DNA of 64,000 nt from Candidatus Omnitrophota bacterium (GCA_015233115.1 JADFYJ010000010.1:5083-69082); one strand, 5' to 3'. Positions 10,487-51,153 are shown, counted from the stretch's first letter. Program-made: numbers and translations. The notes: generated by a model from the letters alone, not told the origin.

Positions 10487-10569
10487 ATAATCTCCTAATG
10501 ATACGCGCCACGTTTGACCCACCCAGCGCTTTTACAACAATCGCTTTTCACTACATGCTACATGCACTT

Positions 10570-11439: not shown

Positions 11440-11451
11440 TTAACTCCTTAT

Positions 11452-13318: not shown

Positions 13319-13336
13319 ACATTTTGCTTTGCTTTT

Positions 13337-13786: not shown

Positions 13787-13800
13787 GACATCCTCTCTTT

Positions 13801-29146: not shown

Positions 29147-29249
29147 ATATTCTCCTTTACCTTTTTTAACGTGGATATGACTAATTTAGTTTGACATTAT
29201 TCTGAAAAATGAATATTGGATGAATCCTCTATCTTTTGACTTTATTCCA

Positions 29250-31282: not shown

Positions 31283-31302
31283 AGTCTTTTCCTTTCTTTT
31301 TA

Positions 31303-31563
31303 TTAGAACTTTAATTTAACTTGGCCTTCCCCTTTATCCTGAGCTTTATCCGCGTTCTTTTTTGTTTCTATCTCATTTTTAGCTCTAGTCTCTTTGTTCT
31401 CTTGATTGTTGATCACATCCCCATCGGTGTTTATTTTTCCATTGTCGCCTGTCTGCTCATTCACTGATCCCTTAGGATCTAGCACCCTCATCTCATCAGC
31501 AAAAACTAACACCGAAGTAGAAAACAATAAAACTGCTGTAATAATCATGAATGGCTTGTTCAT
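31303..31563 (-). CDS. Small secreted acidic/lysine-rich protein (86 aa).
   Basis: Signal peptide MNKPFMIITAVLLFSTSVLVFA. Low-complexity body. Confidence 0.35.
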   Translation of the reverse strand: MNKPFMIITAVLLFSTSVLVFADEMRVLDPKGSVNEQTGDNGKINTDGDVINNQENKETRAKNEIETKKNADKAQDKGEGQVKLKF

Positions 31564-31584
31564 TTCTTTCCCCTTTCTTACCCC

Positions 31585-32205
31585 TTACCGCCCATACAAA
31601 GCCCGTAATTGCTCGACGGATGGCATGTTAGGATAATATTCGCCCTGCGGGCCGATAAAACCACTTCCCGACCTTTTTATATTGACTGCCGTATACCCGC
31701 CTCGTGAGTTAGGAATATTTATCGTCAAATAATCCGCAGATTGTTGCATGTGTGGTGAGCCCTGAACAGGCGGTTGAACAACAATATACGAGCCATCAGG
31801 TAATTGCTGATAGTACACATTTTTGTCATAGTAGTAAGAATCATTATCAACAACAACAGTTGTGTGCCGAGGCGGCAAAGACTCTACTAAAGCTCCAATG
31901 ACGAGACCAGAAACCGCAAATTCCCATCCAAACCAACCCCTTTTGTACCACCGGCCCTCACGGTAGTGATACCGCTCTCCATGATTATATTGCCGGTTGT
32001 TTTCCCGGCTGATTCCCCGGTTATCCCGATTATCCGCCCGCTTAACGCCCCACTGGTCTTGTCGGTTATTATCTTTTTGGTCTTCTCGATCATTTTCCTT
32101 TTGGTTTCCGCGGTTGTCATGACTCTGCGCCAAAACACCCGAACATGACAAGGTCGTTGCCAAAACAAAAATTAAAAACACTCTACCCTTTATATTATAT
32201 TTCAT
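31585..32205 (-). CDS. Secreted/membrane protein with a low-complexity DNR/Q-rich region (DNRGNQKENDREDQKDNNRQDQW...), one TM helix and a C-terminal Y-rich domain. The likely start is MKYNIKG at 32205.
   Basis: Signal peptide followed by a D/N/R/Q repeat region. The track ORF extends to 32253, but the start chosen here avoids the SOD gene. Confidence 0.35.
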   Translation of the reverse strand: MKYNIKGRVFLIFVLATTLSCSGVLAQSHDNRGNQKENDREDQKDNNRQDQWGVKRADNRDNRGISRENNRQYNHGERYHYREGRWYKRGWFGWEFAVSGLVIGALVESLPPRHTTVVVDNDSYYYDKNVYYQQLPDGSYIVVQPPVQGSPHMQQSADYLTINIPNSRGGYTAVNIKRSGSGFIGPQGEYYPNMPSVEQLRALYGR

Positions 32206-32216
32206 TTTTTTCTCTC

Positions 32217-32843
32217 CTATTGTTTCCCCAGGTTGTCCGAAGCAAAATTCCAATTGATTAATTTATCCAAAACAGCCGTCACATAATCTCCCCGTAAATT
32301 TTGATAGTCCAGGTAATACGCGTGTTCCCACACATCAATGGTTAATAGCGGCTTCATGCCCTTGACCAGCGGCAAATCCGCATTACTGGTTTTAACCACC
32401 TTAATTTTTCCTCCATCCACGACCAGCCATGCCCAACCGCTGCCGAACTGAGTTGTTGCCGCAGTCGCCAACTCTTTTTTGCAAGCTTCTAATGTACCGA
32501 AAGATTCTTCGATTTTTTGATGTAATGCGGAAGATGGTTTTCCTCCGCCCTTTGGGCTCAAACTCTTCCAATAAAACGCATGATTCCAGGCCTGCGCGGC
32601 ATTATTAAAAATCGGAGCCTTATCAATTTTACCGGCAGTTTCAGTTATAATTTTTTCTAGCGGCATATCTGAAAATTCTGCTCCCGCCACAAGTTTATTT
32701 AAATTATCGACGTAGGCTTTATGATGTTTACCATAGTGAAAACTCATTGTTTTTGCTGAAATAATCGGCTCTAACGCATTTTCCGGGTAAGGCAAAGCCG
32801 GCAAAACATGCAAATATTTATTTTCTGCGTTTTTATCATTCAT
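32217..32843 (-). CDS. Fe/Mn-family superoxide dismutase.
   Basis: Metal-ligand motifs [24 protein letters not shown] and [13 protein letters not shown]. Confidence 0.9.
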
Positions 32844-35900: not shown

Positions 35901-38900
35901 AAGCTGGGCATCGGTTTCTGTCGCGTTGATCTGCCGCAAAACCACCTGACTGTGAGTCCAGGACAATTCAAAAACGCGGTCCGCGATACGCCAATCATGA
36001 TATTTTTCAATCAAACTTAAAGCTTTATCGCGCGTTTCACCCATGCCGTAAACCATATTAATAATAACGGTCTGTTCCGGTTCAAGGGACATCTGACCAC
36101 GGATCACTGTCACTGGATCCAGCACGGAGCCCTGGCTCCCGGAAAGATCATGAGACTGAGTCATTGCGTAAGGTTCAGCCAGATTATAACCGCGTCCGAT
36201 AAACTGCATACGGTCAGTTTCATAGGATACCTTTTGAATTTCAGCGTCATGCACGGACATTAAATGAAACATCCATGGCTCCTGTTCAGTAACAGACCTG
36301 GGACGACGAGAACACAAGATAGCCTGCTTTGATTTGATAATTTCAGTCTGCACAAAAAGATTACTAAACATTGGATGTAAGGCATCGGCCATATCCGGAG
36401 CCAGCACCACTTCTGAATAACTGGTCACCTCAATCACCCTCCTGCCCCGGGAACGATTGGTGATCCGCACTCGCCGCAGTTCTATATCATCTTCCGGTGA
36501 AACCACAATTTCCACATGAGTCTCCAATCCATAATCCCGCCGACGGAATTCGGCGCGTCCTTGTGAAAAAATAACTTCATAATTTTCCGGCTGTTTATGC
36601 GTGGGTTGATAGGCCGTCGACCAGAATTTTCCGCTTGCTATGTCGCGAATATAACAAAACACGCCCCAATTATCGCAAGTGGTGTCTTCCCGCCAACGGG
36701 TTACAGCCATATCCTTCCAGCGGCTGTAGCCTCCGCCCGCATTTGTTACCATGACATGATACCGGCCATTAGACAATAACTGTACTTCCGGAACCTGTGT
36801 ATGGGGACTTTTAAGTATGCGAACTGGCGACTGGGTTTCAGCGGCCAGCGCGCGAATATTGGAAAGTTCATTGACGTGAATATAAAATGGGATACTCTTA
36901 GGAATTCTCTCTTGAAGCAATAACATGTTAGCCTGAAAAAGCGGATCAGCTCTGAATCGTTTTTGCATAGGATGATCTAATAATACATATGCTAGAGCAA
37001 GTAAGCTCATCCCTTGATGGTGAGCCAAAAATGACCGGAGTATCGTACTCGACCTACCCCTCACCCGGCGTGATGGTGTATAATCAACCGCTTCATATAG
37101 ACCATACTGGCCCATCATCCCTTCACACGCTAGACGCTGTAAATTGAGACAAGCCGGTTCAGGCGTCACCATCAACGCCAGCAATGAAGCATAAGGCGCT
37201 ATAACCAAGTCTTCTGTTAATCCGCGCTTAAATCCTAATCCAGGAACACCAAACGCGCGATACTGGTAATTGAGATTCGCATCAATGGCATTATACCCAG
37301 ATTCCGAAATACCCCAAGCGACCCCAAACTGTTTTCCGTATTCAATTTGTCTTCCTACCGCGGCTTGATAAGTCTGTCCCAGCAGAGTATTTTCATACGT
37401 TGGCATGACCACCAACGGCATCAAGTATTCAAACATCGAACCGCTCCACGACAAAAGAGTTGGTTTTCCGCCGGAGGTAGTTAACAAACGTCCCAGGGCA
37501 AACCAGCTTTCCGAAGGCACTTGTCCCTGAGCGATCGCGGTAAAATAACATAATCTCGCTTCTGACGCCAAAAGATCATAAAATCCTGAATCTAATTTAC
37601 GTTCTTCCGAATAGTATCCTATAGATAACAATTTCCGTTTTACATCATAAAGAAAATCGTACTCCATCTGAGCAAAATCACCGGCTTGCCTAACTAAACG
37701 TTCAATATCGCTGATTCGTTTCAAAGCACGAGTACTTATCTCGCCTTCAACTTTTGTCAGCTCCCTAAGTGTTGGTATGCCCGTAATACCCGAATAATTT
37801 TTCGGAACCAAAAAGATTAAATCATCGAGTATATGCCGACATTGCTGAACCAGCTTTTGGGTCCACTCGATTGCTTCGGCCTCTGCGGATAGAGAAATTT
37901 TTGTATGAAATTCTTCGGCGTGCTGACCGAACGCTTCAAGCCACAATCGTACCTGCTCGAGTGTAGCCGGTTTAAATTCGTCAGCCGACTCTAAATCTTT
38001 TTCCAATTGATGAGTTGAAAACAAATTCATATCACCTATTGAATCCACCAAAACCAAAAACGTATCTTTCAAACTTTCCAGCCATCGCTCTCCTAAAATT
38101 TTGTCATCGCATAGAGCCAATAGTCCGGGCCGTAATGTCAAAAGAAAACCCGCCAGGTTGCCGCTGTCAACTGTTGAGATGTAGTTAGGAAGAAGCGGCT
38201 GCAAAGATTGTGTATCATACCAATTAAAAAAATGTCCGCGAAAACGTTTTAGCCCTGCCATGGAACGAAACGTATTTTCAGTTCGTTCCAGTAGCCTCTG
38301 CGCTGTCATGATACCAAAATCATACGCTGACAAATTAGCTAAAAGAGCCAGGCCGATATTGGTGGGTGAGGTGCGGTGTGAAATTTTAATCATCCGGGTT
38401 TCCTGGTAGTTATCAGGAGGAAGCCAGTGGTCTTCCTGCCCGACAAAGGTCTCAAAAAAATCCCAAATTTTCCGGGAAAGTTTTCGCAGAAAAAATAGTT
38501 GATTAGCGCTTAGTTTTACTTCCCTGCGGGGCATAAGCCGGCTGAGCCACCAGACACAAGCCGGTGATACCGCCCACAACAATAAAACAGGTCCGGCGAA
38601 CATCAAAGTGTGTGGCGCTGATCCGGCCAAATAAATAAACACCGAAACTGCTGTCACAGGAGCAATCCACATTAAAAGGAACGACCGAATCAAATCATTG
38701 CTGTCCCCATCCGTATCCGCATACAAATTCCATTCCAGAAACCGTTTATGAGTAATCAGCATCCGCACGACCGTACGCACGATCGCATCCAAAGTAAAAA
38801 AAGCTTCATAAGGAAGACATGCAACAGTAAAAGCCCTTTGAGCCAAACGCCCAGCCGCGGCCCGGAAGACTGTTTTTAAATGCTGTTTCCAGAAAACATC

Positions 38901-41543
38901 TTTCGACTTGTGTAATGCGTCTAAAAAGGAAATAAGCAGAGGAGGAAAAAATATCATTTCAAATACGACACACGTCCAATGCCAAGGCGAAGGAATAATC
39001 GTCCAACTCATCAGCAAAAGGGCTATTAACGCAAATGGCACTAGACTACGCCTTAAATTATCAAAAATTTTCCATTGCGACAAAAATGATAAAGTATTTT
39101 TCTGCTTGTGCCCGTCAGATGACGGAACTTTGGACCACAACCAGCCTAATAATTGCCAATCTCCGCGGATCCAACGGTGCCGACGCCTAACATCTGTACT
39201 GTAACGGAAAAGATTTTCCTCGTACAATTCGACGTTACTCAACAGTCCGGAACGGGCATAACATCCTTCCCAAAGGTCATGGCTCAAAATCTTACCTTCA
39301 GGAAACCGTCCTTTGCACGCCCTTTCAAAAATATCCAAATCATAAATCCCTTTGCCGATAAATGAACCTTCCCCAAACAGATCCTGGTAAACATCCGAAA
39401 CCGTACGGGTATAAGGATCTATCCCCGGCTCACCTGCGTATAACCTCGCGTAAAAGGACCGATTCGCTCCTGCCAGGCTGGTACTCACCCGCGGCTGAAG
39501 TATTCCGTAGCCTTCGCAGACACATTGTTTCTGCTCGTCATAACGGGCGCGGTTTAAAGGGTGCGCCATGGTTTCTACCAGCTGACGAGCACAATCACGG
39601 GGTAATTGCGTATCTGTATCCAAGGTAATGATATATTTAACATTTTTCAATACCGCCAAATCACCTACGATGAGTAAAAATTTTTCCTGGGAGCCTCCGC
39701 GCAGCAGGCCATTTAAATCCGCTAATTTCCCGCGTTTACGTTCATATCCCATCCAAATGCCTTCACAAGGATTCCAGCTCCGTGGCCGGTGGAACAGAAA
39801 AAAAATATCAGGCCTGCCTTTTTTATATTTACTGTTAAGCTCTACAATTTTTTCCTGGGTTAATCGTAGAAGCGCATCGTCATCAGGCATAGTTTCTTGA
39901 GGCGCGTCCTGAAAGTCAGTTAATAATCCAAAATGTAATTGTTCATCCTGATTAGCCAAAAACCTCACTTCCAAGGCTTCGATAAGCCGCTCTATGTTCT
40001 GTGAACTTGTGAGCATGGTGGGCACAACTATTAAGGTAAGAAATTCCGACGGAATTCCTTTCGAAAAATCCATACGCGGCAATACCTGCGGCTTGACCAT
40101 TGACATGGCCATGTAGTTGACTAGCTCTAAGGCCAATTGACTCATGGCGACAATTAAAAAAACGCCAAAAGCCGCAGCTTTCCATGCCATAACATTCATG
40201 CCATAGAGATGGATCCAAAGGACACCCATCCCCCAAAATGTTAACACGGCAACAGCCCCGAGATACAGCAACAAGGCAAATCGTTGCGCTAATTTATATG
40301 CTTTTTCTATGATTGAAAACTGGTTCCGTACAGCTTGTTCAAGTTGTGACAATCCTTTATCGATTAAATAAAAACCGACGTGAGCGGTCCGGTCACTGAC
40401 TCCGTTTTTCCCAGCCGCTTCACTTGCTAATTGAACCGCTTTTTGCGCCACCTCACTTTCAAAAATTCCGCTCCTTTTCGCTATGTTCTCAACCACATGA
40501 CGGTAGCGGTCACGAGTAGCAAAATCCATCTGAGCATAAAATCCGGCAGGATCTTTGAGTAAAAACTTTTCGACAATACTCATTGTCTCCACAAATTCAC
40601 GCCAATCCATCGCCGACAACAAACGAAGACTTCCGATGCTATTACTGATAGACACCTGATTAGCCGCTTGTTGTTGATTTTCTAAATTAACCAAATGCTC
40701 AATGGTTAATCCCGACTCTGCCAGCCACTGATTAATCCAGGTCAACGGTAAGGCCAAGGATGGACTATGCCCCTGTAAACGGCGGGTCAGCTCAGCCACA
40801 AAAGAGCTCGACATGGGGGGGGTTGACCGTGCCATGTCCGCGACGATTAAAACTAAAGTTTTAGGTTCTCTCGCGGCAACTTCCGCCATTTGATCCGCCC
40901 AAAAATCAGCCAAATTTTGATCCATTCTTCCCACCGTGATACGAGCAGCCACCCGCCGTAGATTTTCAATCAAGGCCAGCCGCAGCATAATAGGAATGGC
41001 CCACAACTCGCCCAAATTTAACAGGGTGACTTGCTGATAAGCCTTTATAAAATTATTCAAAATTTCCAGATCTATCCGTCCATCACCATGAGCAACCATT
41101 TCTAAAGCAATGTCATACACCCTCGGCAGGCCCTGCGAAGGACCATTCATTAATAGAGGCAATTCCCGATGATAACTTTTGGGTAAATGCCGCTTAGCCG
41201 TACGAACCTGCTCTTCGATCAAATAAAAATTATCCAGCAGCCATTCACCTGCCGGCGTACCTAAACGCTTGGCCTTAACCGCCTCAGTCAGCAAGGCATG
41301 AGTTTCCCCCAGTACCATTTCGTTTTCTGTCAGCCTGGTCAAAAGCAATAGTGAAGAACGTTCCGTCGTTAATTTATGCAACCTGGCCAGCGTTTTGCCA
41401 TATTGTTTCATCTGTTCACTGCTGAACAATTCTGAGCGCAGGGGAGGCTCTTCGCGCATATGTTTGGGGAGCAAAATTTTACCGCGCAAACGCCTTAATA
41501 AATGAGAAAAAAATATTTTGATATCTGTTAATCTTATTTTCAT
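32946..41543 (-). CDS. cgs: Cyclic beta-1,2-glucan synthase (Cgs/NdvB/ChvB-like), 2865 aa: N-terminal polytopic membrane region, GT84-type glycosyltransferase domain, second TM region, and a C-terminal GH94-like (alpha/alpha)6 glucan-phosphorylase domain.
   Basis: The length is almost identical to Brucella/Agrobacterium Cgs/ChvB (about 2830-2870 aa). Domain order is TM, then GT with DxD, then TM, then a six-hairpin glycosidase/phosphorylase. This very large single ORF has no repeats. Its start is 4 nt past the stop of the downstream radical SAM gene. Confidence 0.8.
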   Translation of the reverse strand: MKIRLTDIKIFFSHLLRRLRGKILLPKHMREEPPLRSELFSSEQMKQYGKTLARLHKLTTERSSLLLLTRLTENEMVLGETHALLTEAVKAKRLGTPAGEWLLDNFYLIEEQVRTAKRHLPKSYHRELPLLMNGPSQGLPRVYDIALEMVAHGDGRIDLEILNNFIKAYQQVTLLNLGELWAIPIMLRLALIENLRRVAARITVGRMDQNLADFWADQMAEVAAREPKTLVLIVADMARSTPPMSSSFVAELTRRLQGHSPSLALPLTWINQWLAESGLTIEHLVNLENQQQAANQVSISNSIGSLRLLSAMDWREFVETMSIVEKFLLKDPAGFYAQMDFATRDRYRHVVENIAKRSGIFESEVAQKAVQLASEAAGKNGVSDRTAHVGFYLIDKGLSQLEQAVRNQFSIIEKAYKLAQRFALLLYLGAVAVLTFWGMGVLWIHLYGMNVMAWKAAAFGVFLIVAMSQLALELVNYMAMSMVKPQVLPRMDFSKGIPSEFLTLIVVPTMLTSSQNIERLIEALEVRFLANQDEQLHFGLLTDFQDAPQETMPDDDALLRLTQEKIVELNSKYKKGRPDIFFLFHRPRSWNPCEGIWMGYERKRGKLADLNGLLRGGSQEKFLLIVGDLAVLKNVKYIITLDTDTQLPRDCARQLVETMAHPLNRARYDEQKQCVCEGYGILQPRVSTSLAGANRSFYARLYAGEPGIDPYTRTVSDVYQDLFGEGSFIGKGIYDLDIFERACKGRFPEGKILSHDLWEGCYARSGLLSNVELYEENLFRYSTDVRRRHRWIRGDWQLLGWLWSKVPSSDGHKQKNTLSFLSQWKIFDNLRRSLVPFALIALLLMSWTIIPSPWHWTCVVFEMIFFPPLLISFLDALHKSKDVFWKQHLKTVFRAAAGRLAQRAFTVACLPYEAFFTLDAIVRTVVRMLITHKRFLEWNLYADTDGDSNDLIRSFLLMWIAPVTAVSVFIYLAGSAPHTLMFAGPVLLLWAVSPACVWWLSRLMPRREVKLSANQLFFLRKLSRKIWDFFETFVGQEDHWLPPDNYQETRMIKISHRTSPTNIGLALLANLSAYDFGIMTAQRLLERTENTFRSMAGLKRFRGHFFNWYDTQSLQPLLPNYISTVDSGNLAGFLLTLRPGLLALCDDKILGERWLESLKDTFLVLVDSIGDMNLFSTHQLEKDLESADEFKPATLEQVRLWLEAFGQHAEEFHTKISLSAEAEAIEWTQKLVQQCRHILDDLIFLVPKNYSGITGIPTLRELTKVEGEISTRALKRISDIERLVRQAGDFAQMEYDFLYDVKRKLLSIGYYSEERKLDSGFYDLLASEARLCYFTAIAQGQVPSESWFALGRLLTTSGGKPTLLSWSGSMFEYLMPLVVMPTYENTLLGQTYQAAVGRQIEYGKQFGVAWGISESGYNAIDANLNYQYRAFGVPGLGFKRGLTEDLVIAPYASLLALMVTPEPACLNLQRLACEGMMGQYGLYEAVDYTPSRRVRGRSSTILRSFLAHHQGMSLLALAYVLLDHPMQKRFRADPLFQANMLLLQERIPKSIPFYIHVNELSNIRALAAETQSPVRILKSPHTQVPEVQLLSNGRYHVMVTNAGGGYSRWKDMAVTRWREDTTCDNWGVFCYIRDIASGKFWSTAYQPTHKQPENYEVIFSQGRAEFRRRDYGLETHVEIVVSPEDDIELRRVRITNRSRGRRVIEVTSYSEVVLAPDMADALHPMFSNLFVQTEIIKSKQAILCSRRPRSVTEQEPWMFHLMSVHDAEIQKVSYETDRMQFIGRGYNLAEPYAMTQSHDLSGSQGSVLDPVTVIRGQMSLEPEQTVIINMVYGMGETRDKALSLIEKYHDWRIADRVFELSWTHSQVVLRQINATETDAQLFGHLAGFIIYAHASLRADPAVLIQNRRGQSGLWGSAISGDLPMVILQIGDLANVEIVRQMVQAHAYWRLKGLAVDLVIWNEALSGYRQLLQEQIMGLISATVQSQIAHNSGEIFVRPAEQISDEERILFQSVARAIISDRRGTLANQIYRHNFSEFPVEQFIPVKTFRPAIAPSLGETRHDLILFNGLGGFTPDGREYVICLSSDQVTPAPWVNVLANAHFGTIISENGLAYTWSENAHEFRLSPWNNDPVNDLTGEAFYLRDEETGQVWSPAPQPVHSRHPYLIRHGFGYSVFEHDEGGLHSELWVYVALESPVKFSVLKIRNISGRPRRLSATGYVEWVLGDLRSKTVMHVHTEVDPINGAIYARNFYNSEFSDIIAFFSTNDMGRTICADRAEFLGRNGSIHKPDALLRAHLSGRTGSALDPCAAIQVPFELADGEEREIVFTLGAGHNVEQVKNLVRNFCGSSGAQEALDAVNKYWTHTIGAVQVETPDSSLNVLANGWLIYQTLACRLWGRSGYYQSGGAFGFRDQLQDVMALNHCEPRLMREHLLLCASHQFLEGDVQHWWHPPSGRGVRTHCSDDYLWLVYATCHYVLSIGDTGVLDELVPFLRGRMVTVEEDSYYDLPKQSSEKVSLYEHCQRAIIKSLSIGQHGLPLMGSCDWNDGMNCVGQQGKGESVWLGFFLYDVLTQFIKMAQLRDDSAFVEICRAQLIQLKQNIEKNGWDGEWYRRAYFDDGALLGSAGNSECQIDSIAQSWSVLSGAADPDRGRKAMTSLNQRLVHRDTQIIQLLDPPFDKSGMNPGYIKGYVPGVRENGGQYTHAAIWAAMAFARLGDSRMAWELLDMINPVNHGKSLEEINIYKVEPYVVAADVYAVAPHVGRGGWTWYTGSAGWMYRLLLEFLLGLRLNVNQLSIEPCLPPEWKTFKIHYRYRDTLYHIEVSQILLGSGLAGVLVDGHLQENKMIELIDDHQDHRVEVRMIAENSQ

Positions 41544-43198
41544 GGATGGGACGCAAAAGGATAACCGTCCTGCCGGATATGACCTTTCGCAATCTGCAGT
41601 TTTTCAACAAATCGGTTTTTCTTAAAATTCAAATTCCATTCCTTGACAATACCCCAGCCTAAAACACGAAGCAGATCATTTCGCCAATAGCGATACCAAT
41701 TGATCCATCCCCGCTGAATATCATGAAAGAATATAATCACCGCGGGTAGCATCAAAATATCCAAACCAATTTTTAAAAAATATTTGAACTGATAAAACGA
41801 CGTCATGATTTGCTTCTGGGAGGCCTGCATTTCTTCCGCGGTCAACGGAGCATCCGGTTCAAAAATTGGAAAATTACCGTCATAAAATTCCCAACCAATA
41901 TAACGGATATCATAAATTCTTTTTTGCCGTTTAAGCCGCTCAGTCATTAACGTTCCCGGTAAAGGTACCGGAAGCAAAACTTGCACAGTATCAAGCTTGG
42001 CTTTTCGGATAAATGTTAAATAACGCTCAACCCGCTCTTTCGCTGTCATGGTAAAATGCGTACCTTCATCCAGAGGATATCCAAAAATAAACATGCCATG
42101 CACCAAAAACCCGAAATCATGAAAAATTTTAGTCAGCGCCAGCATATCTTCTGGTTGAATATGTTTATTCATGGCCTTTAATTCTTCAGCAATAGGCGAC
42201 TCATAACCAATACAAACCTTATTAATCCCCGCCTGATACATGGCTGAAAGAAGCTCCGGATCTTTGGCTTTATCCAGCCTAATCTGCGCCGTAAAATCAA
42301 GTTTTTTACCAATACGTTTTTGATAATCTTTAAGGATATAACAAAAACGGATCGTCTCATCCCGGTACTGTCCGAACAGATCATCCACAATAAAAAAATG
42401 CCGGGCATCCCGGGTCTCTACCAAAATACTGATCTGCGCCAAAAGACGTTCCGGTCTCGCCGGCCGCGGCTGACCCTTCACAGTACAAAATTCGCAATCC
42501 ATGCCACAGCCCCGAATTCTTTCTACAGGATAAATTTTTATCCGGGCATACCGTACTAAAGAAAAATCCGGTAAAGGCAATTGATCAAAATCAGCTAACT
42601 TTTCTCTTTCGCCGGTAAAAAATAATTTTCCATTTTTAAAATACGCGAGACCTTTGACTTGATCAATCTCTCCCTGGCCCATAATCGCGGCTAATAATTC
42701 TTTAATGACCAGTTCTCCTTCTCCGATAACGACATAATCGATTCCATGTGACAAAGCATCTAAAATATTATCCCCGGAAAAATGCTGACCTCCCGCGACT
42801 GTAATGACCCCTCTGCTTTTATAAAAACCAGCGACTTCATAAAGCCTGGGAACCGTGCTCGTTAATCCACCATAAAAACCGACCACATCCGCGGGTCTTT
42901 GCCTTTGCATGCGTCCATGATCCGGCTGGTCAAACTCGTCTTTGGGGGCATGCAAGGAAAAATTATTTTCATCAATAACTTCAGCATCCCAATTGGACAT
43001 TTTGTGGACGTTGGTGGCCACATAAACCGGCCCCAAACACGTTGTCATCCTGGCAATGTTCGAATAAACATTAAATGCCGGATAAGCAGGAATAACCATC
43101 CTAAATCTATATTTATTCATAGGTATATTATCTGCAAATTCAGATATAGATAAATGGGCGGAATCGTTTTTATATAGACTTTTTTCGCACATCCACAA
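41540..43198 (-). CDS. B12-binding-domain radical SAM enzyme (class B radical SAM; methyltransferase-like).
   Basis: The N-terminal region is cobalamin-binding-like. The radical SAM motif is CGMDCEFC (CxxxCxxC). Its start overlaps the cgs stop (ATGA). The start is uncertain (43198, or the internal ATG at 43120). Confidence 0.75.
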   Translation of the reverse strand: MWMCEKSLYKNDSAHLSISEFADNIPMNKYRFRMVIPAYPAFNVYSNIARMTTCLGPVYVATNVHKMSNWDAEVIDENNFSLHAPKDEFDQPDHGRMQRQRPADVVGFYGGLTSTVPRLYEVAGFYKSRGVITVAGGQHFSGDNILDALSHGIDYVVIGEGELVIKELLAAIMGQGEIDQVKGLAYFKNGKLFFTGEREKLADFDQLPLPDFSLVRYARIKIYPVERIRGCGMDCEFCTVKGQPRPARPERLLAQISILVETRDARHFFIVDDLFGQYRDETIRFCYILKDYQKRIGKKLDFTAQIRLDKAKDPELLSAMYQAGINKVCIGYESPIAEELKAMNKHIQPEDMLALTKIFHDFGFLVHGMFIFGYPLDEGTHFTMTAKERVERYLTFIRKAKLDTVQVLLPVPLPGTLMTERLKRQKRIYDIRYIGWEFYDGNFPIFEPDAPLTAEEMQASQKQIMTSFYQFKYFLKIGLDILMLPAVIIFFHDIQRGWINWYRYWRNDLLRVLGWGIVKEWNLNFKKNRFVEKLQIAKGHIRQDGYPFASHP

Positions 43199-46100
43199 TT
43201 AAAGGAAGGTGATCTGAGGCTAATTTTCCGAGGTCAGTCCGGGCGACAGCCACATGCGTTACTTCCAAATCTTCGCTCACGAAAACATGATCGATCCGGC
43301 CGATCGGATAATGACTAAACCACGTCGAGCGGGGACGGTGATGTTCCAGTTCGGTCTGGGCATCATTAAGAACTACCTTTATATCGCGGCAAAAAGCGGA
43401 ATTGGGAAGGGAATTTAGGTCACCGCATAAAACTACCGGGCCCGTACACGCGGGATGGCCTAACCACTCTGACCCCAATATTGCTTCAACTTGATGCGTA
43501 CGTTCCCAAGGTAAAACACTTAAATGAGTATTAAGAAATTGCAACCGCATATCTCCGATGTTGATGGCGGTCCACAACGCGCCGCGCGGCTCTGCCCAGG
43601 AATATTTCCCTGTGCCAGGCAAAGCTCCAGCACGAACCAGTTCCATGGGATAACGGCTTAAAATGGCATTGCCATACCGCTCTTCTTCAATCTGAAAAGA
43701 CGGATGAAAATGAACCATCATTTCTAATTGTTGCGCGATAATATGAGGTTGATCAACTCCCCCAGTGCGCGCCCGCTTCATATCTAATTCCTGAAGCGCG
43801 ACAATGTCAGGCTTAAGCCGGGCAATAACCCTGGCGATCCGTTCTGGCGAAATCTTGCCGTCGGTTCCAATACACCCATGGACATTAAAAGTCATAATTC
43901 GAATGGACTTATTAATGCCTTCATTCTGTTTGTAGGGAATAACATTGCCTATGAGCGTTTTGGCACAATCGCTTTCCCGTTCCAAAAATTGCAGGGCCGC
44001 TGTCCGCAAGTCCATAGTCACCACATATGGCTGGTTCTCCGACAAATGGACGACATCGGAAGGCAACAAAGCAAAAGCATTAGTTTCTTCCCAACCAGGT
44101 CCGGCATGAGACCCACTTTCAGAGGGAAAGGTCAGGTTTTTTTGACCCGGCCGGAATCCCATAAACGTAAAATTACCGGCATTAGGATGCTGGCATAGTT
44201 GAATAAGATCAGCGGTGACCGCCGCTAAATAAGGATGATCCTCTCCAAATATTTTTTTAGCATCCTGAGGTAATATAAACTCGCCATCCTCTCTCCACAC
44301 TCTAACCTGTCCATCTTCTTCCGGACGCATAACGACCGGGATTTTCGCCTGCTCAACTAATTTCCGTGCCAGTCTAACCTCATCATCCCTGCTCATTTGA
44401 GCCGGTAAATAGATATTACCCGTCGGGCCGATTGCCGTCACCACCAGTTTCGCCGCCTGTTCTGTGTCGTATGGAAGACTTGTATCCAATTTGGGAGTAT
44501 TTGTCTTGCCCAAAAACCTTACCCGTGTTAACTGGGAGCCAGTCGCCGCCGAAGGATGAACCACAAATTCAGATGAATAAAACTCCTTGAGTATTTCTAC
44601 CACAGCAGTTTCAACACTCCGGCCATATTTTATATGATATGAATCCGCCTCTTCTTGACCATGATCCGAATAAATCCAGACATCATAACGGCGCAGAGAA
44701 GAATGCATGGCTGTATTATAAATATTCTGGATAGCCCGGTCGATCCCTGGTAAAGTCCAACGAGCGGATCTTGATGACGGACCGCGATTATGAGAATGCT
44801 CGTCATAACCCAATAAATTAAAATGGATAATCGGCATACCGCGGGCCAGGTCCATCTTGACTCCCAAAATCACCAGTTCCCGTAACATCACACTTATTAA
44901 AGCGCGCAGATAAATAAATTTTATTTCATTTTTAAAATTTTTTTCCGCGAATAACCGCCAGCCATAATCTATGGTGCCTAAAATAATTTCCCAGCCCATT
45001 AACACAATCATCCGACCAAAAGCGAATAAATGCGTCGTAATTAAAACGGCTAAACTCCAAAGATTAAAATCTTTCCAAATTTTATTCCACCCTAAAAGAG
45101 CCGCACAAAAATGAGCTTCTTTTGCTCCTCCGGTAAAAATGTTTGAATACGAACTTCCGCCATCTAAAAGTCCCGGCCCCGTTAGAGCGAGACGACGTTC
45201 GATTTCGCTGGCCGCATCCCCATCATACATGGTGAATACTTTTTGAGTGTCCTGATCCCTAAATGAAAACGCGGGCACGCTTTGTTTTTTTCCATAAAAT
45301 AATTCTCCCTGAACCGCGGCGGTATTAGAAGGAAGGCCGGTATAAAGGGGATATAGTTCATACTGCTGCCGCGCTAATAGATTTTTCAAAAAAGGCATTT
45401 TATTGTCGGTTAGCGCAATTTTGAGCTGTGTTTGTGAAAATCCGTCGATTTGGATCATGACCAAACCCGGACAACTAGCCGTGTTCCCGCTTTTTAATAC
45501 CGGCTTTTGGGCGACAGTGGTCGCGTCCGACATAGCCATTCCCGTAGCTTTCATCATATTTTTAAACATTTCCCATTCGACTTTTAACCGATTGGCCAAA
45601 GCATGCCACGCCGTATCTTTCTCCTCAGATAAAATAATTTCTTTTTTTAAGACTTCTTCATACACCCTAAGCATTTTGGGGGCACACACCTCAATCGAAA
45701 ATTCTTGAACACTGATCCGTGCCTGTTGTTTCATCCGAAGATATTCTTCGTAGGGCTGATTCACACATCCCTGCAATGCCTCGACAAAATCGCCCTGATC
45801 CTGATGAAAAATTAACCGGCCATTATCCTGGTCTTTCACCACTTCCCTGACTCCTGTGGCGTCCAGAGCGACCACCGGCACGCTGGCAGCCATTGCCTCC
45901 AGAAGTACAATACCCTGTGTTTCACTCAGTGATGCGAAAGCAAAAACATCCATGGCATGATACGCGTCAACCAAATCCTGACCTTGCAAAGGACCAAGTA
46001 ACCGCATTCGTTCTCCTACGCCTGCTTCATGAAAAATTTTTTTGATGTCTTCTTCCAACGGCCCATTCCCGACCAACATCACATAAGCAGATGGATTTTT

Positions 46101-46784
46101 TTTCAAATATTCTGTTGTACACTGACTCAAAAATTCCAAATTTTTTTCTATAGCTAACCTTCCGACAAAACCAACCACCTTGGAGTTAAGGGGTATTCCC
46201 CAACGTTTGCGGATCACGCTTCCTTGTCCGTTGGCAAATTTTTTTAAGTCAATCCCTGTTGGCACAACCGTAATCGGCGACAGCACACCGCGCTCCACCA
46301 AGAGATCCTGGACGCTTTGGCTGGGAGCAATCACCTGGTCAGCCAGATTAGCATAACCGGCAGTCAATTCTATGACAAAACGCCTCATGCCTTCGTTTTG
46401 AACCGGAAGATAATGCATGTGATGTTCAAACATGGTGTGATAGGTAAACACTAAAGGGATATGATTTTGCCGGCATAAACGCAACGCAATGTCACCCATC
46501 CAAAACGGATGGTGGCTATGAACAATATCCGGCTGATACTGTTTCATCAATTCCGGTAAAAGACCCGACATGGGCAGAGCCATGGAAAAATTCGAATGAT
46601 TAAAATTTTGAATAGCTCTTATGCGCACCACACCTTCTTCATCAGGAGGCGCTCCTTCTGCTTCCGGTGCGACAATAATAACCTGATGCCCTAATTTTTC
46701 AAACCTATCCGTGAAGGATTGTATCGACTGCTCAATCCCTCCCACCATAGGAGTAAATGAATTGGTCATCATCAAAATTTTCAT
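43170..46784 (-). CDS. Three-domain enzyme: N-terminal GT4 glycosyltransferase, central alkaline-phosphatase-superfamily (type I phosphodiesterase / phosphotransferase, OpgB/LtaS-like) domain with internal TM helices, and C-terminal endonuclease/exonuclease/phosphatase (EEP) domain.
   Basis: GT4 N-terminus (GGIEQSI...HSHHP). VMIQIDGFSQ and GYDEHSH metal-site-like motifs in the middle. The C-terminus has MTFNVHGC...DIVALQEL...DHVFVS, typical of EEP. Confidence 0.65.
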   Translation of the reverse strand: MKILMMTNSFTPMVGGIEQSIQSFTDRFEKLGHQVIIVAPEAEGAPPDEEGVVRIRAIQNFNHSNFSMALPMSGLLPELMKQYQPDIVHSHHPFWMGDIALRLCRQNHIPLVFTYHTMFEHHMHYLPVQNEGMRRFVIELTAGYANLADQVIAPSQSVQDLLVERGVLSPITVVPTGIDLKKFANGQGSVIRKRWGIPLNSKVVGFVGRLAIEKNLEFLSQCTTEYLKKNPSAYVMLVGNGPLEEDIKKIFHEAGVGERMRLLGPLQGQDLVDAYHAMDVFAFASLSETQGIVLLEAMAASVPVVALDATGVREVVKDQDNGRLIFHQDQGDFVEALQGCVNQPYEEYLRMKQQARISVQEFSIEVCAPKMLRVYEEVLKKEIILSEEKDTAWHALANRLKVEWEMFKNMMKATGMAMSDATTVAQKPVLKSGNTASCPGLVMIQIDGFSQTQLKIALTDNKMPFLKNLLARQQYELYPLYTGLPSNTAAVQGELFYGKKQSVPAFSFRDQDTQKVFTMYDGDAASEIERRLALTGPGLLDGGSSYSNIFTGGAKEAHFCAALLGWNKIWKDFNLWSLAVLITTHLFAFGRMIVLMGWEIILGTIDYGWRLFAEKNFKNEIKFIYLRALISVMLRELVILGVKMDLARGMPIIHFNLLGYDEHSHNRGPSSRSARWTLPGIDRAIQNIYNTAMHSSLRRYDVWIYSDHGQEEADSYHIKYGRSVETAVVEILKEFYSSEFVVHPSAATGSQLTRVRFLGKTNTPKLDTSLPYDTEQAAKLVVTAIGPTGNIYLPAQMSRDDEVRLARKLVEQAKIPVVMRPEEDGQVRVWREDGEFILPQDAKKIFGEDHPYLAAVTADLIQLCQHPNAGNFTFMGFRPGQKNLTFPSESGSHAGPGWEETNAFALLPSDVVHLSENQPYVVTMDLRTAALQFLERESDCAKTLIGNVIPYKQNEGINKSIRIMTFNVHGCIGTDGKISPERIARVIARLKPDIVALQELDMKRARTGGVDQPHIIAQQLEMMVHFHPSFQIEEERYGNAILSRYPMELVRAGALPGTGKYSWAEPRGALWTAINIGDMRLQFLNTHLSVLPWERTHQVEAILGSEWLGHPACTGPVVLCGDLNSLPNSAFCRDIKVVLNDAQTELEHHRPRSTWFSHYPIGRIDHVFVSEDLEVTHVAVARTDLGKLASDHLPLIVDVRKKSI

Positions 46785-46805: not shown

Positions 46806-49064
46806 CTATTTATCAAACTCATAAAAACTTGTTTTTGCTGGTACAGTAATTTTTGGAAAACCAGTCAAATAAATTTCCATCTCTGGTTCTTTGGTAAACC
46901 ATGTCCCCTGCCATTCAACCATAATTTTTTGCCCTACCGGCTTTATCAAAATTTTAATATCTCCAAAACTTGTTGGCGCGGGGCCAAAAATCATATCCGT
47001 TTTGGTGTCGAGCCAGGTTTGCGGGATTCCTGAACATAAAATCAACCGGCCTTGTTCTTCACGGACAAAACAATTTCGAATCATGAGCGCCCATTCAGCG
47101 GCTGCCCAAACGTGCTGTCCATCACCCATACATCCGCCCAAGGTGCGGGGATGAATCGCTTCAGGCCACTGTCCAGTCGAGGTTGCGCCATCCGCAACCG
47201 CTGTCATAAGTTCAAAATACCGAGGATCGCCCGCGCGTAAAAAAGTTTGGGCTAAATGTAAAGTCAAGTAAGGATTAATGCCTGAATGAGTCATATCATG
47301 AAAAAACCCGCCTTTTACTAAACAATTCTCCATTAAAAAATTTGCCGTTCCCAAAACTCGCTGATCATGGGGCTTTAAAAGCCGAAGCGGATAGCTGGCA
47401 GCCAAAGAACCAATGGCCCCTGAATCTAAACGGCGGTATGGCGACGCTGGTATAGACTCATTTTTTATACGGTCTGCTGCTTTTAATAAACTTTTATCAA
47501 TACTGTCCGACAGAGCGTAAGCTTCATTTTCAAAATCCACAGCCTGATTGTGATCATGATACCCTTCACATAAGTATGCCGCAGCCTGCAAACCTGATAC
47601 GGACCAAAAATCATCCCAAAAATAAAAATCGTTCGGTCCTAAATGTTCAGCGCTAAAGCCTGACGGCATTAATCCAGCATGGACAAATTTTAAATCTTTA
47701 GACAACCTTTTTTTGACAATCCACCTTCCTCCTTTATAAATGGACTCTTTCCATTTTGGCGATGGCGCTTCGCCGGTCATTTCGCAATATTGACGCATAA
47801 TCCATAACGCTTCCCCATTCGAATCCCACTCTCCTTCTTGGGAAAGAAAATAGCCTGGGGGCGTTTGTCTAGACCGAAAAGTCTCTAACGCCCTGGCTAC
47901 CCGTCTTTTAAACCCTGTGCACAACAAAGCATATAAAATAAAAGCCGCGTCCCTAAACCAAAATCGTTTATAAATATACGGGCCAGGATAAACCTCATGA
48001 GGGGAATGTAAAATCATGGTTCTAACGGCAGTGTCATAAAGAAATTGAAAATGCTGATCAGGAATTTGCAAAGCACACATTCCACTCAAACTTTGATCCC
48101 AGGCTTCCTCAGCATTTTCCTGGTATTCTGCCACTTTCTCTTTTACAAAAACATTTTTCGTTAAAGGAATTGAAACCGTAACCTCCCGATTCAATTCTGG
48201 TTCAAGTTTAAATAACGCGGCGGCAGTGGCCATACCGACTTTGCAAAATACTCCCGGCTCATCGTCTTGAATTGACAACCGCGTATAAACATCCCCTTGG
48301 TGATAATAAGAAAAAATATTGCGGTCAGGAGGTTGATCAAAATCTATCTGGTCTTTTTCATTGACTTGCCAGCTTGAACGATCAGCCATCACTTTGATAT
48401 TATGGACAAAACTGACACCTTCCGGATTATACGGACGCAAAGAAATGACCAGCCATCCCGCCGACGGCATGGTTCCTGAAATGCGAATTTGACATACCGG
48501 GCATAAAGCCGTTCCCACCATTTGCACTTTATTCTGAAGTTTTAATTGGTCCTGCTGGCATATGGTTATAATACTTAAATTTTTGTCACTCATGAAGTGT
48601 TGCGACACCTCAAGCAAGCGGGAAGGGAGTAAAGGCGTTCCTTTTTCCGGAATGAGCCACGCATCAATCGACCAGCCATCGTATAACGGCGTCACTAGTC
48701 CCCGTCCGTCAACAATGGAATATTCATTGCTGTCCGGAATACCTACTGCTGTCCAGTTGCGATGCGTCAAATTGATTTGGGTTAAAGAAAAAGCCCGGGG
48801 AATGAATGCGTCATTACGCGGATCATACTGACACTCAATCCAATATGGCCAAATCCAATCTAAATTATGTTGAATAGCCAAGCTATTGATCAAGCCCCGG
48901 CTGTGCAACACAACTCCTGAGCGCAACAATTCTGTAGGCGCGGTTACTTCTGATGGTTGCGCAAAATTTTGTAACTGAGCTAAAATTTTAATTGGATCTA
49001 AAAACCCGTGTTTGCGCGCCGCACTGCGAATCAGATATCTCCAAGGAAGCCATTTGAGCCACAT
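46806..49064 (-). CDS. Large (alpha/alpha)6-barrel glycoside-hydrolase-like protein (GDE_C/GH15/GH63-type fold). Assignment is tentative.
   Basis: The C-terminal half shows the periodic W/G/D-rich helix pairs of six-hairpin glycosidases. No unambiguous catalytic signature was identified. Confidence 0.4.
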   Translation of the reverse strand: MWLKWLPWRYLIRSAARKHGFLDPIKILAQLQNFAQPSEVTAPTELLRSGVVLHSRGLINSLAIQHNLDWIWPYWIECQYDPRNDAFIPRAFSLTQINLTHRNWTAVGIPDSNEYSIVDGRGLVTPLYDGWSIDAWLIPEKGTPLLPSRLLEVSQHFMSDKNLSIITICQQDQLKLQNKVQMVGTALCPVCQIRISGTMPSAGWLVISLRPYNPEGVSFVHNIKVMADRSSWQVNEKDQIDFDQPPDRNIFSYYHQGDVYTRLSIQDDEPGVFCKVGMATAAALFKLEPELNREVTVSIPLTKNVFVKEKVAEYQENAEEAWDQSLSGMCALQIPDQHFQFLYDTAVRTMILHSPHEVYPGPYIYKRFWFRDAAFILYALLCTGFKRRVARALETFRSRQTPPGYFLSQEGEWDSNGEALWIMRQYCEMTGEAPSPKWKESIYKGGRWIVKKRLSKDLKFVHAGLMPSGFSAEHLGPNDFYFWDDFWSVSGLQAAAYLCEGYHDHNQAVDFENEAYALSDSIDKSLLKAADRIKNESIPASPYRRLDSGAIGSLAASYPLRLLKPHDQRVLGTANFLMENCLVKGGFFHDMTHSGINPYLTLHLAQTFLRAGDPRYFELMTAVADGATSTGQWPEAIHPRTLGGCMGDGQHVWAAAEWALMIRNCFVREEQGRLILCSGIPQTWLDTKTDMIFGPAPTSFGDIKILIKPVGQKIMVEWQGTWFTKEPEMEIYLTGFPKITVPAKTSFYEFDK

Positions 49065-49083
49065 TTTTTTATCCTTTGAAAGG

Positions 49084-49229
49084 CATGTAGCATGTCGTAT
49101 GTAGTATGTAGTAAAAACGTAAAGTAAAAAAACATAAATATTTCTTTAAAATTTGGTTATCAAGTTTTTGCATTTATTTTACACCAATCGCTTGTTCGCC
49201 ACATGCTACATGCTACATACGACATACTA
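49084..49229. repeat. About 146-bp element bounded by roughly 30-bp imperfect inverted repeats built from CATGTAG/TCGTATG/TAGTATG heptamer units, enclosing an AT-rich core. Candidate miniature inverted-repeat element or structured regulatory region.
   Basis: The left arm is CATGTAGCATGTCGTATGTAGTATGTAGTA (49084-49113). The right arm is ACATGCTACATGCTACATACGACATACTA (49201-49229), which is its approximate reverse complement. Confidence 0.55.
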
Positions 49230-49265
49230 TTTTTTAAACACCAACCATTTAAACCTATTCATCGA

Positions 49266-49993: not shown

Positions 49994-50464
49994 TTATTTT
50001 TTTCGCCCCTCATATTTACTTATCACCCACAATATTAAAAAATAAAACAAAACCCCCGCTAGAATAGCGATAAGCATACTGCCGACGAATAACGGATAAT
50101 ACAAATGAAAAAAAACCTTATAGGAAAAATGCCTGAAAATTTCCCAATTCAAAACGGGATATTGACTTCCCAGGATACCTCTCCCAACGCTATATCCTGC
50201 CCACGTTATAAAAGGAAAAGTCAGAATCGAAGAAAAATTAGTCCCTATTAAAATCGCGATTTTATTCACCGGTTTTATTAAAATGGCCACAATAATAACT
50301 AAAATTGTGTGGAAACCATACAAAGGAAGAATGGAAATAAATACTCCAAGAGCAACACCCAACGCAATTTCTTGGGATGAATTATTTAACTGCAATATCC
50401 ATCGCCATCTCTCTCTTATGGTCTGACCTTTTGTGGTCATAATTCTTTCCCCAAAACATAACAT
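49994..50464 (-). CDS. DUF2062-family membrane protein.
   Basis: ALGVALGVFISILPLYGFHTILVIIVAILIKPVNK matches the DUF2062 conserved core. Confidence 0.55.
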   Translation of the reverse strand: MLCFGERIMTTKGQTIRERWRWILQLNNSSQEIALGVALGVFISILPLYGFHTILVIIVAILIKPVNKIAILIGTNFSSILTFPFITWAGYSVGRGILGSQYPVLNWEIFRHFSYKVFFHLYYPLFVGSMLIAILAGVLFYFLILWVISKYEGRKK

Positions 50465-51153
50465 GTCACTTCCTTCCCCAAATAAACTTTCAAATAGGTC
50501 CGCGGACTTTGATAAATAACCCGAAAACCCATAGACACAAAAAAATCTTTAGCAATCTCGGAAATCGTTCCCATATGCACCGCTTTGACCTGAGCATTTT
50601 TCAAATAGTCCAGATAGGCGACCAGTAATTTTTTCCCCACCCCTTCCCTGCGGTATCCATGCTTCACATTAATATGCAATGTGGCTGGAAATTCTTTCGT
50701 AAAATTCGGCATTACAAACTCACCCTTTAATGCGCCCTGCAAAGACTGAATAAAAAATTTTAAGTTGGCTTTTCTCAAAAAAACACCGCGTTGTAACGCT
50801 TTCATAAAAAGCGGCAGCATAGTTTTACTGCTGATTTGGTTATGGTTATGGAGATCTAGCGAACCAATAATGTAACCGACAACTTTTCCTTTCATATCCG
50901 CCACATAACAGGATTCTGGCTCAAAATCCACATAAGATGACACTAAGGCATCCGCTAAAACTTCATCATCGGTAAAAATATTTCCCCGGGGCAATTCCAA
51001 AAACGCGGTTTCACAGCTAATCCGGCGCACATGCGGACGGTCTTCAATACGATATTTCCGTATCGTAACATGCCGCTTAGCAGACCGGATACTTCGGTCT
51101 TTATGTAAATTTAGTTCTTTTTGAGGGAAAATATCTTGGGGCTGATTAATCAT
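50437..51153 (-). CDS. GNAT-family N-acetyltransferase.
   Basis: Acetyl-CoA binding motif RREGVGKKLL at the expected position. Confidence 0.7.
   Translation of the reverse strand: MINQPQDIFPQKELNLHKDRSIRSAKRHVTIRKYRIEDRPHVRRISCETAFLELPRGNIFTDDEVLADALVSSYVDFEPESCYVADMKGKVVGYIIGSLDLHNHNQISSKTMLPLFMKALQRGVFLRKANLKFFIQSLQGALKGEFVMPNFTKEFPATLHINVKHGYRREGVGKKLLVAYLDYLKNAQVKAVHMGTISEIAKDFFVSMGFRVIYQSPRTYLKVYLGKEVTCYVLGKEL

Follow-up and report, generated by a model that had tools for sequence, protein, structure and literature searches.

The analysed window is a 64,000-nucleotide stretch of DNA from Candidatus Omnitrophota bacterium (GCA_015233115.1 JADFYJ010000010.1:5083-69082). On its minus strand, at 43170..46784, lies an open reading frame (ORF) of 1204 amino acids plus a stop codon, which starts with ATG, has no internal stop codon and encodes a fusion of a GT4 glycosyltransferase, an NPP-type phosphodiesterase and a phosphodiesterase of the endonuclease/exonuclease/phosphatase (EEP) fold.

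The GT4 domain of the fusion (residues 1–385; 45630..46784, minus strand as for all parts of the protein) has the GT-B fold of retaining enzymes and is matched by the Pfam families Glyco_transf_4 (PF13439; residues 14–181, 132 bits against a curated cut-off of 28.5) and Glycos_transf_1 (PF00534; residues 191–356, 113 bits against 26.4), which together delimit it to residues 14–356. It is followed by a linker with an amphipathic helix (residues 386–437; 45474..45629), placed by the alignment and the structure model, and by a domain of the alkaline-phosphatase superfamily (residues 438–938; 43971..45473), in which Phosphodiest (PF01663) matches residues 441–714 with 33 bits against a cut-off of 23, the profile being covered only in part. 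The C-terminal EEP domain (residues 959–1204; 43173..43910) matches Exo_endo_phos (PF03372; residues 964–1192, 81 bits, above the curated cut-off) and also exceeds the cut-off of PF23226, the PGAP2IP C-terminal nuclease-like family (34 against 27 bits), over its first 90 residues only. No metallophosphoesterase domain was detected in the fusion by the Pfam scan.

The catalytic residues were judged in an alignment of 21 sequences, consisting of the fusion and 20 homologues with 43–62% identity. Invariant in all 21 are, in the GT4 domain, the basic residues R209 and K214, expected to bind the nucleotide-sugar phosphates, and the EX7E pair E288/E296, eight residues apart; in the middle domain, the metal ligands D447, D661, H665, D707, H708 and H893 and the nucleophile Thr488; and in the EEP domain, the catalytic residues N967, E999, D1122, N1124, D1165, D1191 and H1192. 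All three active sites look intact, and the three-domain architecture read from this ORF in a preliminary description of the window is borne out by Pfam matches above the cut-offs together with these invariant positions. The same description had assigned the middle domain to a phosphotransferase/sulfatase fold. The superfamily is correct, as the domain has the alkaline-phosphatase-superfamily fold with a two-metal site and a Thr nucleophile, but judged from its sequence it is of the NPP/phosphodiesterase type (PF01663) and not of the sulfatase type. In a phmmer alignment its YDEHSH...YSDHG block pairs with DEAGH...SDHG, the metal site in the Xanthomonas NPP; a single-sequence search of the PDB with this domain gave marginal NPP matches only (E 0.5), which are useful for motif alignment alone.

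The fusion is 100% identical to a protein of a Candidatus Omnitrophica metagenome-assembled genome (MAG) at NCBI, where the start is placed at the second ATG (1200 amino acids); the homologue consensus MKILMxTN in the alignment favours the first ATG. The reading frame is open with an even composition, and the linker can be aligned among fused homologues. Among the 120 best database clusters, 113 are at least 1150 amino acids long, contain the same three domain sets and are co-linear over approximately 100% of the query; these full-length clusters measure ~1200–1280 amino acids, have 42–61% identity and originate from independent NCBI, JGI, ENA and Logan assemblies. The preliminary description had allowed that a frameshift or an assembly error might have joined separate ORFs, as could be argued from the separate GT4 and NPP-EEP genes of most genomes and from the metagenomic source, but the chance of such an artefact is virtually nil, since it is excluded by more than 100 independent, co-linear, full-length fused homologues.

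The relatives of the fusion were collected by a scan of one genome per species, which yielded 80 related loci from Planctomycetota, Omnitrophota, Verrucomicrobiota, Nitrospirota, Nitrospinota, Desulfobacterota, Sumerlaeota, Lentisphaeria and Alpha- and Gammaproteobacteria, the gammaproteobacterial carriers including cultured Microbulbifer, Rheinheimera and Bowmanella. At 61 loci GT4 (~430 amino acids) and NPP-EEP (~810 amino acids) are encoded by separate adjacent genes, many of them with 4-nt overlaps, and the triple fusion was found in 7 of the 68 classifiable loci, the other 12 of the 80 being unclear. The linker of the fusion corresponds to the C-terminal tail of the stand-alone GT4 and a shortened N-terminus of the stand-alone NPP-EEP protein. 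An exhaustive HMMER search with the NPP-EEP part gave 727 representatives at 50% identity (E <= 1e-30), and 14 of the best 150 of these are at least 1200 amino acids long. Fused forms occur in at least three clades of a rough neighbour-joining tree (the group of the window, a Pirellulales pair and a Desulfobacterota pair), and variants also exist, P0054 (993 amino acids) being without the EEP domain and P0114 (879 amino acids) without GT4. Because split adjacent genes dominate and fused forms recur in at least three clades, the fusion represents joined neighbours rather than an isolated invention: it is a recurrent fusion of the Rosetta-stone type between two adjacent genes and their minority form (about 10%). 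The architecture, earlier called not common, is therefore uncommon as far as the fused form is concerned, but the family is large and spread over many phyla, and its parts are adjacent genes elsewhere.

The conservation of neighbouring genes was analysed by comparing each of the 36 proteins of the window with the 80 loci by tblastn. The gene located 21 nt upstream of the fusion (46806..49064, minus strand) encodes a protein of 752 amino acids with a predicted GH15-like fold, composed of a beta-sandwich, an (alpha/alpha)6 barrel and a second beta-sandwich. Its homologue is present in 65 of the 80 loci, almost always on the same strand and 6–60 nt upstream, and the upstream flank is shorter than 700 nt in at least five of the 15 loci that lack it. 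De novo clustering of all ORFs from the 80 loci showed that a gene for a membrane protein of the VTT/DedA type (~240 amino acids) heads the operon in 32 loci and revealed no partner beyond the four genes, the next clusters being present in at most 9 loci. The resulting operon, with the order DedA/VTT or GtrA membrane protein, GH15-like (alpha/alpha)6 enzyme, GT4 and NPP-EEP, is widespread and uncharacterised. Examples of the complete order are the Microbulbifer loci L009 and L010, the latter from Microbulbifer yueqingensis with VTT at 7039–7761, the GH15-like gene at 7761–10004, GT4 at 10001–11275 and NPP-EEP at 11294–13759. The family of the 752-amino-acid protein is abundant in Omnitrophota (4688 matches), and in 89 of the best 120 Omnitrophota matches it carries an N-terminal GtrA/DPMS_TM membrane domain; at the loci L001, L003 and L070 GtrA is encoded by a separate adjacent gene.

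The 752-amino-acid protein gave no match in Pfam, NCBIfam or the PDB sequences, even with a profile search of the latter, and was likened to GH15 by fold search only; by sequence (Pfam Glyco_hydro_15) it does not belong to GH15. Its identity to the GH15 bacterial glucoamylase/glucodextranase is 13%, with no sequence-level match, and unlike these enzymes it has a conserved helical N-terminus of ~100 residues and is often fused to the GtrA membrane domain. Acidic residues conserved in the family are E412, D414, E418 and E657. The protein would thus represent a new family at the sequence level with a GH15-like predicted fold.

Several operons contain a further gene. At L001 (3851..5314), L003 (8538..10004) and L070 (8530..9990) a gene encoding an ACP (PP-binding) domain and a PlsC-type acyltransferase is embedded in the operon, with overlapping stops and starts. 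At the alphaproteobacterial locus L023 (5009..7738) the corresponding protein comprises an N-terminal AMP-binding, fatty-acid-activating domain, ACP and a PlsC-type acyltransferase, and its gene ends 4 nt before the homologue of the 752-amino-acid protein. No ACP/PlsC-type acyltransferase gene was found in the window. In an Eisenbacteria MAG (L024, 11252..13552) a second (alpha/alpha)6 enzyme directly follows NPP-EEP; it has GDE_N_bis and MGH1-like/GDE_C domains and is of the glycogen-debranching or mannosylglycerate-hydrolase type.

The topology of the fusion was considered with regard to a hydrophobic/amphipathic segment inserted in the NPP domain (residues 575–648; 44841..45062), seen in the structure model and the hydropathy profile. 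The segment is modelled as a long two-helix hairpin (helices 186–214 and 217–248 of the model, the numbering of which is offset by +400), with Kyte-Doolittle values of 1.9 and 1.78, the latter being the value of a buried GT4 segment. The Hessa-type insertion energy of helix 1 is +1.8 kcal/mol in the fusion and −2.1 to +5.5 kcal/mol across homologues, that of helix 2 is +4.6 and 3.9 to 9.6 kcal/mol, respectively, and the bona fide transmembrane controls VTT and GtrA span −3.7 to +3.7 kcal/mol by the same estimate. The charged hairpin residues E599, E620, R627 and R635 are invariant in the 21-sequence alignment. By these estimates, insertion into the membrane is borderline for helix 1 and disfavoured for helix 2, so that no clear transmembrane pair is present, and the hairpin may act as a cap or may anchor the protein in the membrane in a monotopic or re-entrant manner. 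The internal transmembrane helices proposed earlier are therefore retained as a hydrophobic two-helix hairpin, but whether it spans the membrane is uncertain.

No signal peptide or transmembrane segment precedes the NPP domain in the fusion sequence, and the linker between GT4 and NPP is non-hydrophobic; likewise, the stand-alone NPP-EEP proteins open with an Arg-rich amphipathic segment and have no signal peptide. Because the hairpin, whether it spans the membrane or not, returns the chain to the same side, the linker is non-hydrophobic and a signal peptide is lacking, all three domains are predicted to lie on the cytoplasmic side. The NPP domain sits behind a cytoplasmic GT4 and does not share the extracytoplasmic location typical of characterised NPPs. 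Its identity to NPP7 alkaline sphingomyelinase, NPP6 choline glycerophosphodiesterase and Xanthomonas NPP is 13–17%, and it differs from the secreted and ecto-NPPs in the hairpin insertion of ~75 residues, in a second, disordered insertion, in the predicted cytoplasmic location and in the fusion to EEP. The EEP domain has about 20–28% identity to neutral sphingomyelinase, bacterial sphingomyelinase C and bacterial EEP proteins (4ruw; YbhP-like NF003842). Characterised structural neighbours of both folds thus include lipid phosphodiesterases, but the substrate class of EEP cannot be read from the fold, as TDP2, nocturnin and CNOT6L score almost as high.

The best NCBIfam match of the GT4 domain was the alpha-monoglucosyl-diacylglycerol synthase Mgs (NF049988, an equivalog model), matched over the full length with 155.3 bits against a cut-off of 400. 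The GlcNAc-phosphatidylglycerol synthase model was also matched over the full length (113 bits, the cut-off of 480 being far higher), and the lipoteichoic-acid-anchor glycosyltransferases IagA/BgsA were likewise among the matches. Among solved structures in the PDB the closest by sequence were MshA (1.3e-22), PimA and BshA; PimB' and proteins similar to sucrose-phosphate synthase (SPS) were also among the matches. The undecaprenyl-PP-glycan transferases PglJ and WbnH matched much more weakly than Mgs, MshA and PimA.

Downstream of the fusion in the window lie a gene for a B12-binding radical SAM protein (41540..43198, minus strand), directly adjacent, and a gene for a cyclic beta-1,2-glucan synthase-like protein, Cgs, of 2865 amino acids (32946..41543, minus strand), which overlaps the stop of the radical SAM gene by 4 nt. 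The genes of the 752-amino-acid protein, the fusion, radical SAM and Cgs are thus arranged on one strand with gaps of 21 nt and ~50 nt, followed by the 4-nt overlap. The second gap depends on the radical SAM start: the listed TTG overlaps the fusion gene by 29 nt, but the start is more plausibly, and probably, an ATG near 43119 (MNKYRFRMVIPAY...), which leaves the ~50 nt between the genes. The best NCBIfam matches of the radical SAM protein are BchE, HpnJ, the ladderane-type lipid radical SAM proteins and HpnR, all far under the cut-offs; Cgs contains a GT2 domain, a glucoamylase-like domain and the GH94 supersandwich and catalytic domains. A Cgs homologue is located within 10 kb in only 1 of the 80 related loci, where it is convergent, and a radical SAM homologue is likewise near only 1 of the 80; Cgs is absent from the vicinity of L001 and L003, which are the closest relatives with a fused gene. 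Both genes are local neighbours and not conserved partners.

Scans of 41000–50000 with Rfam and for promoters and terminators gave nothing beyond chance. A 24-nt inverted repeat with 92% complementary arms (49088–49111 and 49206–49229, 94 nt apart) lies in the intergenic region 49065..49265 upstream of the gene of the 752-amino-acid protein, bracketing the presumed promoter region of the operon. It is built of GTATGTA/GCATGTA-like heptads, occurs nowhere else in the window (0 expected by chance) and has no Rfam match; it could be an operator, another regulatory remnant or a remnant of a mobile element. A crude test with an E. coli-based consensus, applied to the 400 nt upstream of each of 20 operons, most of them proteobacterial, found no Pho-box-like direct repeat.

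In the Omnitrophota locus L070, the region 4414..14169 contains homologues of the GH1 beta-glucosidase (29250..30704, 60% identity) and the 153-amino-acid ORF (28685..29146, 64%) from the window region 28685..32253, as well as homologues of two other small window ORFs, around an operon of GtrA, GH15-like, acyltransferase and GT4 genes. The neighbourhood is therefore syntenic but rearranged. L070 contains neither the NPP-EEP part nor radical SAM or Cgs. Elsewhere in the window, the gene at 23038..27318 (minus strand) encodes a protein of 1426 amino acids that contains four fibronectin type III repeats and a Golvesin C-terminal domain and gives weak matches to multicopper oxidase and purple-acid-phosphatase-N; its make-up suggests a large protein that is secreted or exposed on the surface. 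A gene for a DUF2062 membrane protein with a weak BspA/TIGR03546 match, located two genes upstream of the operon, overlaps a GNAT acetyltransferase gene (49994..50464 and 50437..51153, both minus strand), and a 241-amino-acid protein with a signal peptide and a weak DUF3108 match is encoded between this pair and the operon. No homologues of the DUF2062, GNAT or 241-amino-acid proteins were found next to the related operons. A role in anti-phage defence, raised by a weak Pfam GT4-conflict match (22 bits, under the cut-off), was rejected, as PADLOC gave no match for the fusion, its 752-amino-acid partner or the VTT protein.

Two described systems resemble the operon in their logic. In PlcP-Agt lipid renovation, a phospholipase C acts with a GT4 glycosyltransferase in SAR11, Roseobacter, Sinorhizobium and Pseudomonas (PMC4796936, PMC8231724, PMC8528852). 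By description, and as a functional analogy, both cases have adjacent genes that couple cleavage of a phospholipid head-group to GT4 glycosylation of diacylglycerol on the cytoplasmic face. However, PlcP is a metallophosphoesterase, whereas the diesterases of the fusion have NPP and EEP folds; PlcP-Agt includes no GH15-like partner, DedA/GtrA protein or fusion, and it is Pho-regulated, whereas the crude search found no Pho-box-like motif upstream of the 20 operons examined here. The second system is represented by gpgSDF of P. aeruginosa, for glucosaminyl-phosphatidylglycerol, and hexSDF of C. difficile, which combine a cytoplasmic GT4 lipid synthase, a cytoplasmic head-group-modifying enzyme and a putative flippase (PMC12713373). 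The four-gene operon shares this logic by functional analogy, not membership: the place of the deacetylase and the UPF0104/YbhN-type flippase is taken here by NPP-EEP, the GH15-like enzyme and DedA/GtrA.

Taking these results together, we infer, with a little less than even confidence, that the operon is a module for membrane-glycolipid synthesis and head-group exchange on the cytoplasmic face of the membrane. The fusion would be held on the cytoplasmic face of the inner membrane by the amphipathic/hydrophobic hairpin of its NPP domain. The NPP domain, with its Thr nucleophile, and/or the neutral-sphingomyelinase-like EEP domain would cleave phospho-head-groups from phospholipids or lyso-phospholipids of the membrane, or transfer them, giving a phospho-alcohol and an acceptor of the diacylglycerol type or another lipid alcohol. 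The GT4 domain, as a retaining enzyme supplied with a nucleotide sugar, would then glycosylate the lipid to an alpha-glycosyl lipid or phosphoglycolipid, which the upstream GH15-like enzyme may trim or turn over, and in other lineages the DedA or GtrA protein would move the lipid product or carrier across the membrane. The match of GT4 to the lipid glycosyltransferase Mgs, the cytoplasmic topology, the anchoring elements, the DedA/GtrA partners, the embedded PlsC-type acyltransferases and the lipid-phosphodiesterase structural neighbours point to this model. The domain identities, the intact active sites, the fused and split gene structures, the conserved synteny and the lack of export signals are results of the analysis, and the lipid substrate, the order of reactions and the product are proposals. 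The more general idea of the preliminary description, that a single polypeptide couples the transfer of a sugar to phosphodiester chemistry, is reasonable.

Several observations weigh against this lipid model. The window contains no VTT or GtrA gene, and the fusion is co-oriented and tightly packed there with the radical SAM and cyclic glucan synthase genes. The GT4 domain scores far under the Mgs cut-off and resembles that family without being a member, and its top solved relative, MshA, acts on a soluble inositol phosphate. The Omnitrophota loci L067 and L070 hold the GH15-like gene and GT4 without any NPP-EEP, and the model leaves the need for two phosphodiesterases and a glycosidase unexplained. 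As far as is known, the characterised GtrA and the best-characterised DedA substrates are polyprenyl-phosphate lipids, not diacylglycerol lipids. A role in phosphate starvation has no support. We found no literature on this domain combination or operon and, for its members, neither biochemical nor genetic evidence, and the databases give the operon proteins generic names only.

The preference for polyprenyl-phosphate lipids leads to an alternative that we consider unlikely, in which GT4 lengthens a polyprenyl-(P)P-sugar, the carrier is released or recycled through cleavage of a (pyro)phosphodiester by NPP and EEP, and the carrier lipid is flipped by GtrA or DedA. The GtrA and DedA families have been implicated in the translocation of polyprenyl-phosphate or its sugar-linked forms, and NPP enzymes cleave pyrophosphate bonds. 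The GtrA/DPMS_TM fusions and VTT/DedA genes of the operon would fit this pathway, as would the several GT4 matches to undecaprenyl-PP-glycan transferases. However, PglJ and WbnH are the weaker matches, the 80 loci share no conserved gene for a priming phosphoglycosyl transferase, a polymerase or a Wzx-type protein, and the embedded ACP/PlsC-type acyltransferases fit acyl-glycerolipids better.

A soluble product of the compatible-solute type is quite improbable. GT4 would make a phosphorylated alpha-glycoside, one or both phosphoesterase domains would dephosphorylate it, and the GH15-like protein would be the catabolic hydrolase. MshA and sucrose-phosphate synthase use phospho-acceptors, and pathways of this kind typically feature synthase-phosphatase fusions and an (alpha/alpha)6 hydrolase dedicated to the product. 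The rank of MshA and the SPS-like matches of GT4, the cytoplasmic location of all parts and the MGH1/GDE-like hydrolase that follows the L024 operon agree with this proposal, but it leaves the hairpin, the Arg-rich amphipathic N-terminus, the GtrA fusion, the DedA gene and the PlsC-type acyltransferases unexplained. Both phospho-domains, moreover, have diesterase-type folds and not those of the HAD-type phosphatases usual in such pathways.

The preliminary description had suggested that the fusion could act on the glucan, here that of the downstream Cgs, and we regard this as highly unlikely. The fusion would decorate the cyclic beta-1,2-glucan by adding a sugar and by adding or trimming phosphoglycerol or phosphoethanolamine derived from phospholipids. 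Cgs makes its glucan in the cytoplasm, and phospho-substituents are known on cyclic glucans. The tight packing of the four co-oriented window genes, with no terminator signal beyond chance, is compatible with such a role, as is the GH1 gene, which adjoins the operon in L070 and lies nearby in the window. The association with a glucan synthase is, however, not conserved: Cgs is near 1 of the 80 loci (convergent) and radical SAM near 1, against 65 for the 752-amino-acid partner, and L001 and L003 are without Cgs. The phosphoglycerol transferases OpgB/MdoB and CgmB, which transfer a phospho-alcohol from phospholipid to glucan, are alkaline-phosphatase-superfamily proteins of the sulfatase type (PF00884) with an N-terminal multi-transmembrane anchor and a periplasmic catalytic domain. 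The fusion differs from OpgB, CgmB and LtaS-type proteins in having PF01663 instead of PF00884, no signal peptide or N-terminal multi-transmembrane anchor, a predicted cytoplasmic location and a GT4 domain, and the conserved partners DedA, GtrA and the acyltransferase point to lipids.

Least probable among the functional alternatives, with only a very slight chance, is a glycolipid on an inositol phospholipid, similar to phosphatidylinositol mannosides (PIM) or glycosylphosphatidylinositol (GPI), with GT4 glycosylating phosphatidylinositol or a related lipid like PimA/PIG-A, NPP transferring a phospho-alcohol like the ethanolamine-phosphate transferases PIG-N/O/G and EEP remodelling the lipid like the C-terminal domain of CWH43/PGAP2IP; the parallel with the folds of PIG-A, PIG-N and PGAP2IP is striking, PimA and PimB' are among the solved relatives, PF23226 passed its cut-off, PF01663 is the domain family of the GPI ethanolamine-phosphate transferases, and a PlsC-type acyltransferase beside GT4 recalls patA-pimA, but the PF23226 match is much weaker than the generic EEP match and confined to the first 90 residues, genes for phosphatidylinositol synthase or inositol-phosphate synthase are not conserved among the 80 loci, the topology differs, as the GPI ethanolamine-phosphate transferases act on the luminal side, and most of the host phyla are not known to make phosphatidylinositol.

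Every domain superfamily is already known, so that the fusion as such is not new in category, and what is new is the domain combination, the conserved four-gene operon and a partner family unrecognised by sequence. A broader interpretation, which we regard as doubtful, is that DedA/GtrA, GH15-like, GT4 and NPP-EEP constitute an unrecognised, widespread pathway from phospholipids to a new class of alpha-glycosyl lipids or phosphoglycolipids; jointly with it, and just as doubtfully, this pathway would rely on two phosphodiesterases other than PlcP and on a new family resembling glycoside hydrolases, and the triple fusion of Omnitrophota and Planctomycetota would be evidence that its steps are channelled.

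The fusion flags a large operon that crosses phyla, in which NPP-EEP alone comprises 727 clusters at 50% identity, and is of value mainly as a sign of a widespread, uncharacterised pathway of the envelope or of lipids. Even if the lipid model is wrong, the tempting link to the cyclic glucan synthase is corrected. If it is true, the operon would exchange phospholipid for glycolipid head-groups by a second, independent route, or would lead to a new phosphoglycolipid, and it would give a function to the new GH15-like family and further physiological context to DedA and GtrA. The hosts include environmentally dominant, poorly cultured phyla, and the split version in cultured Gammaproteobacteria makes the system experimentally tractable.

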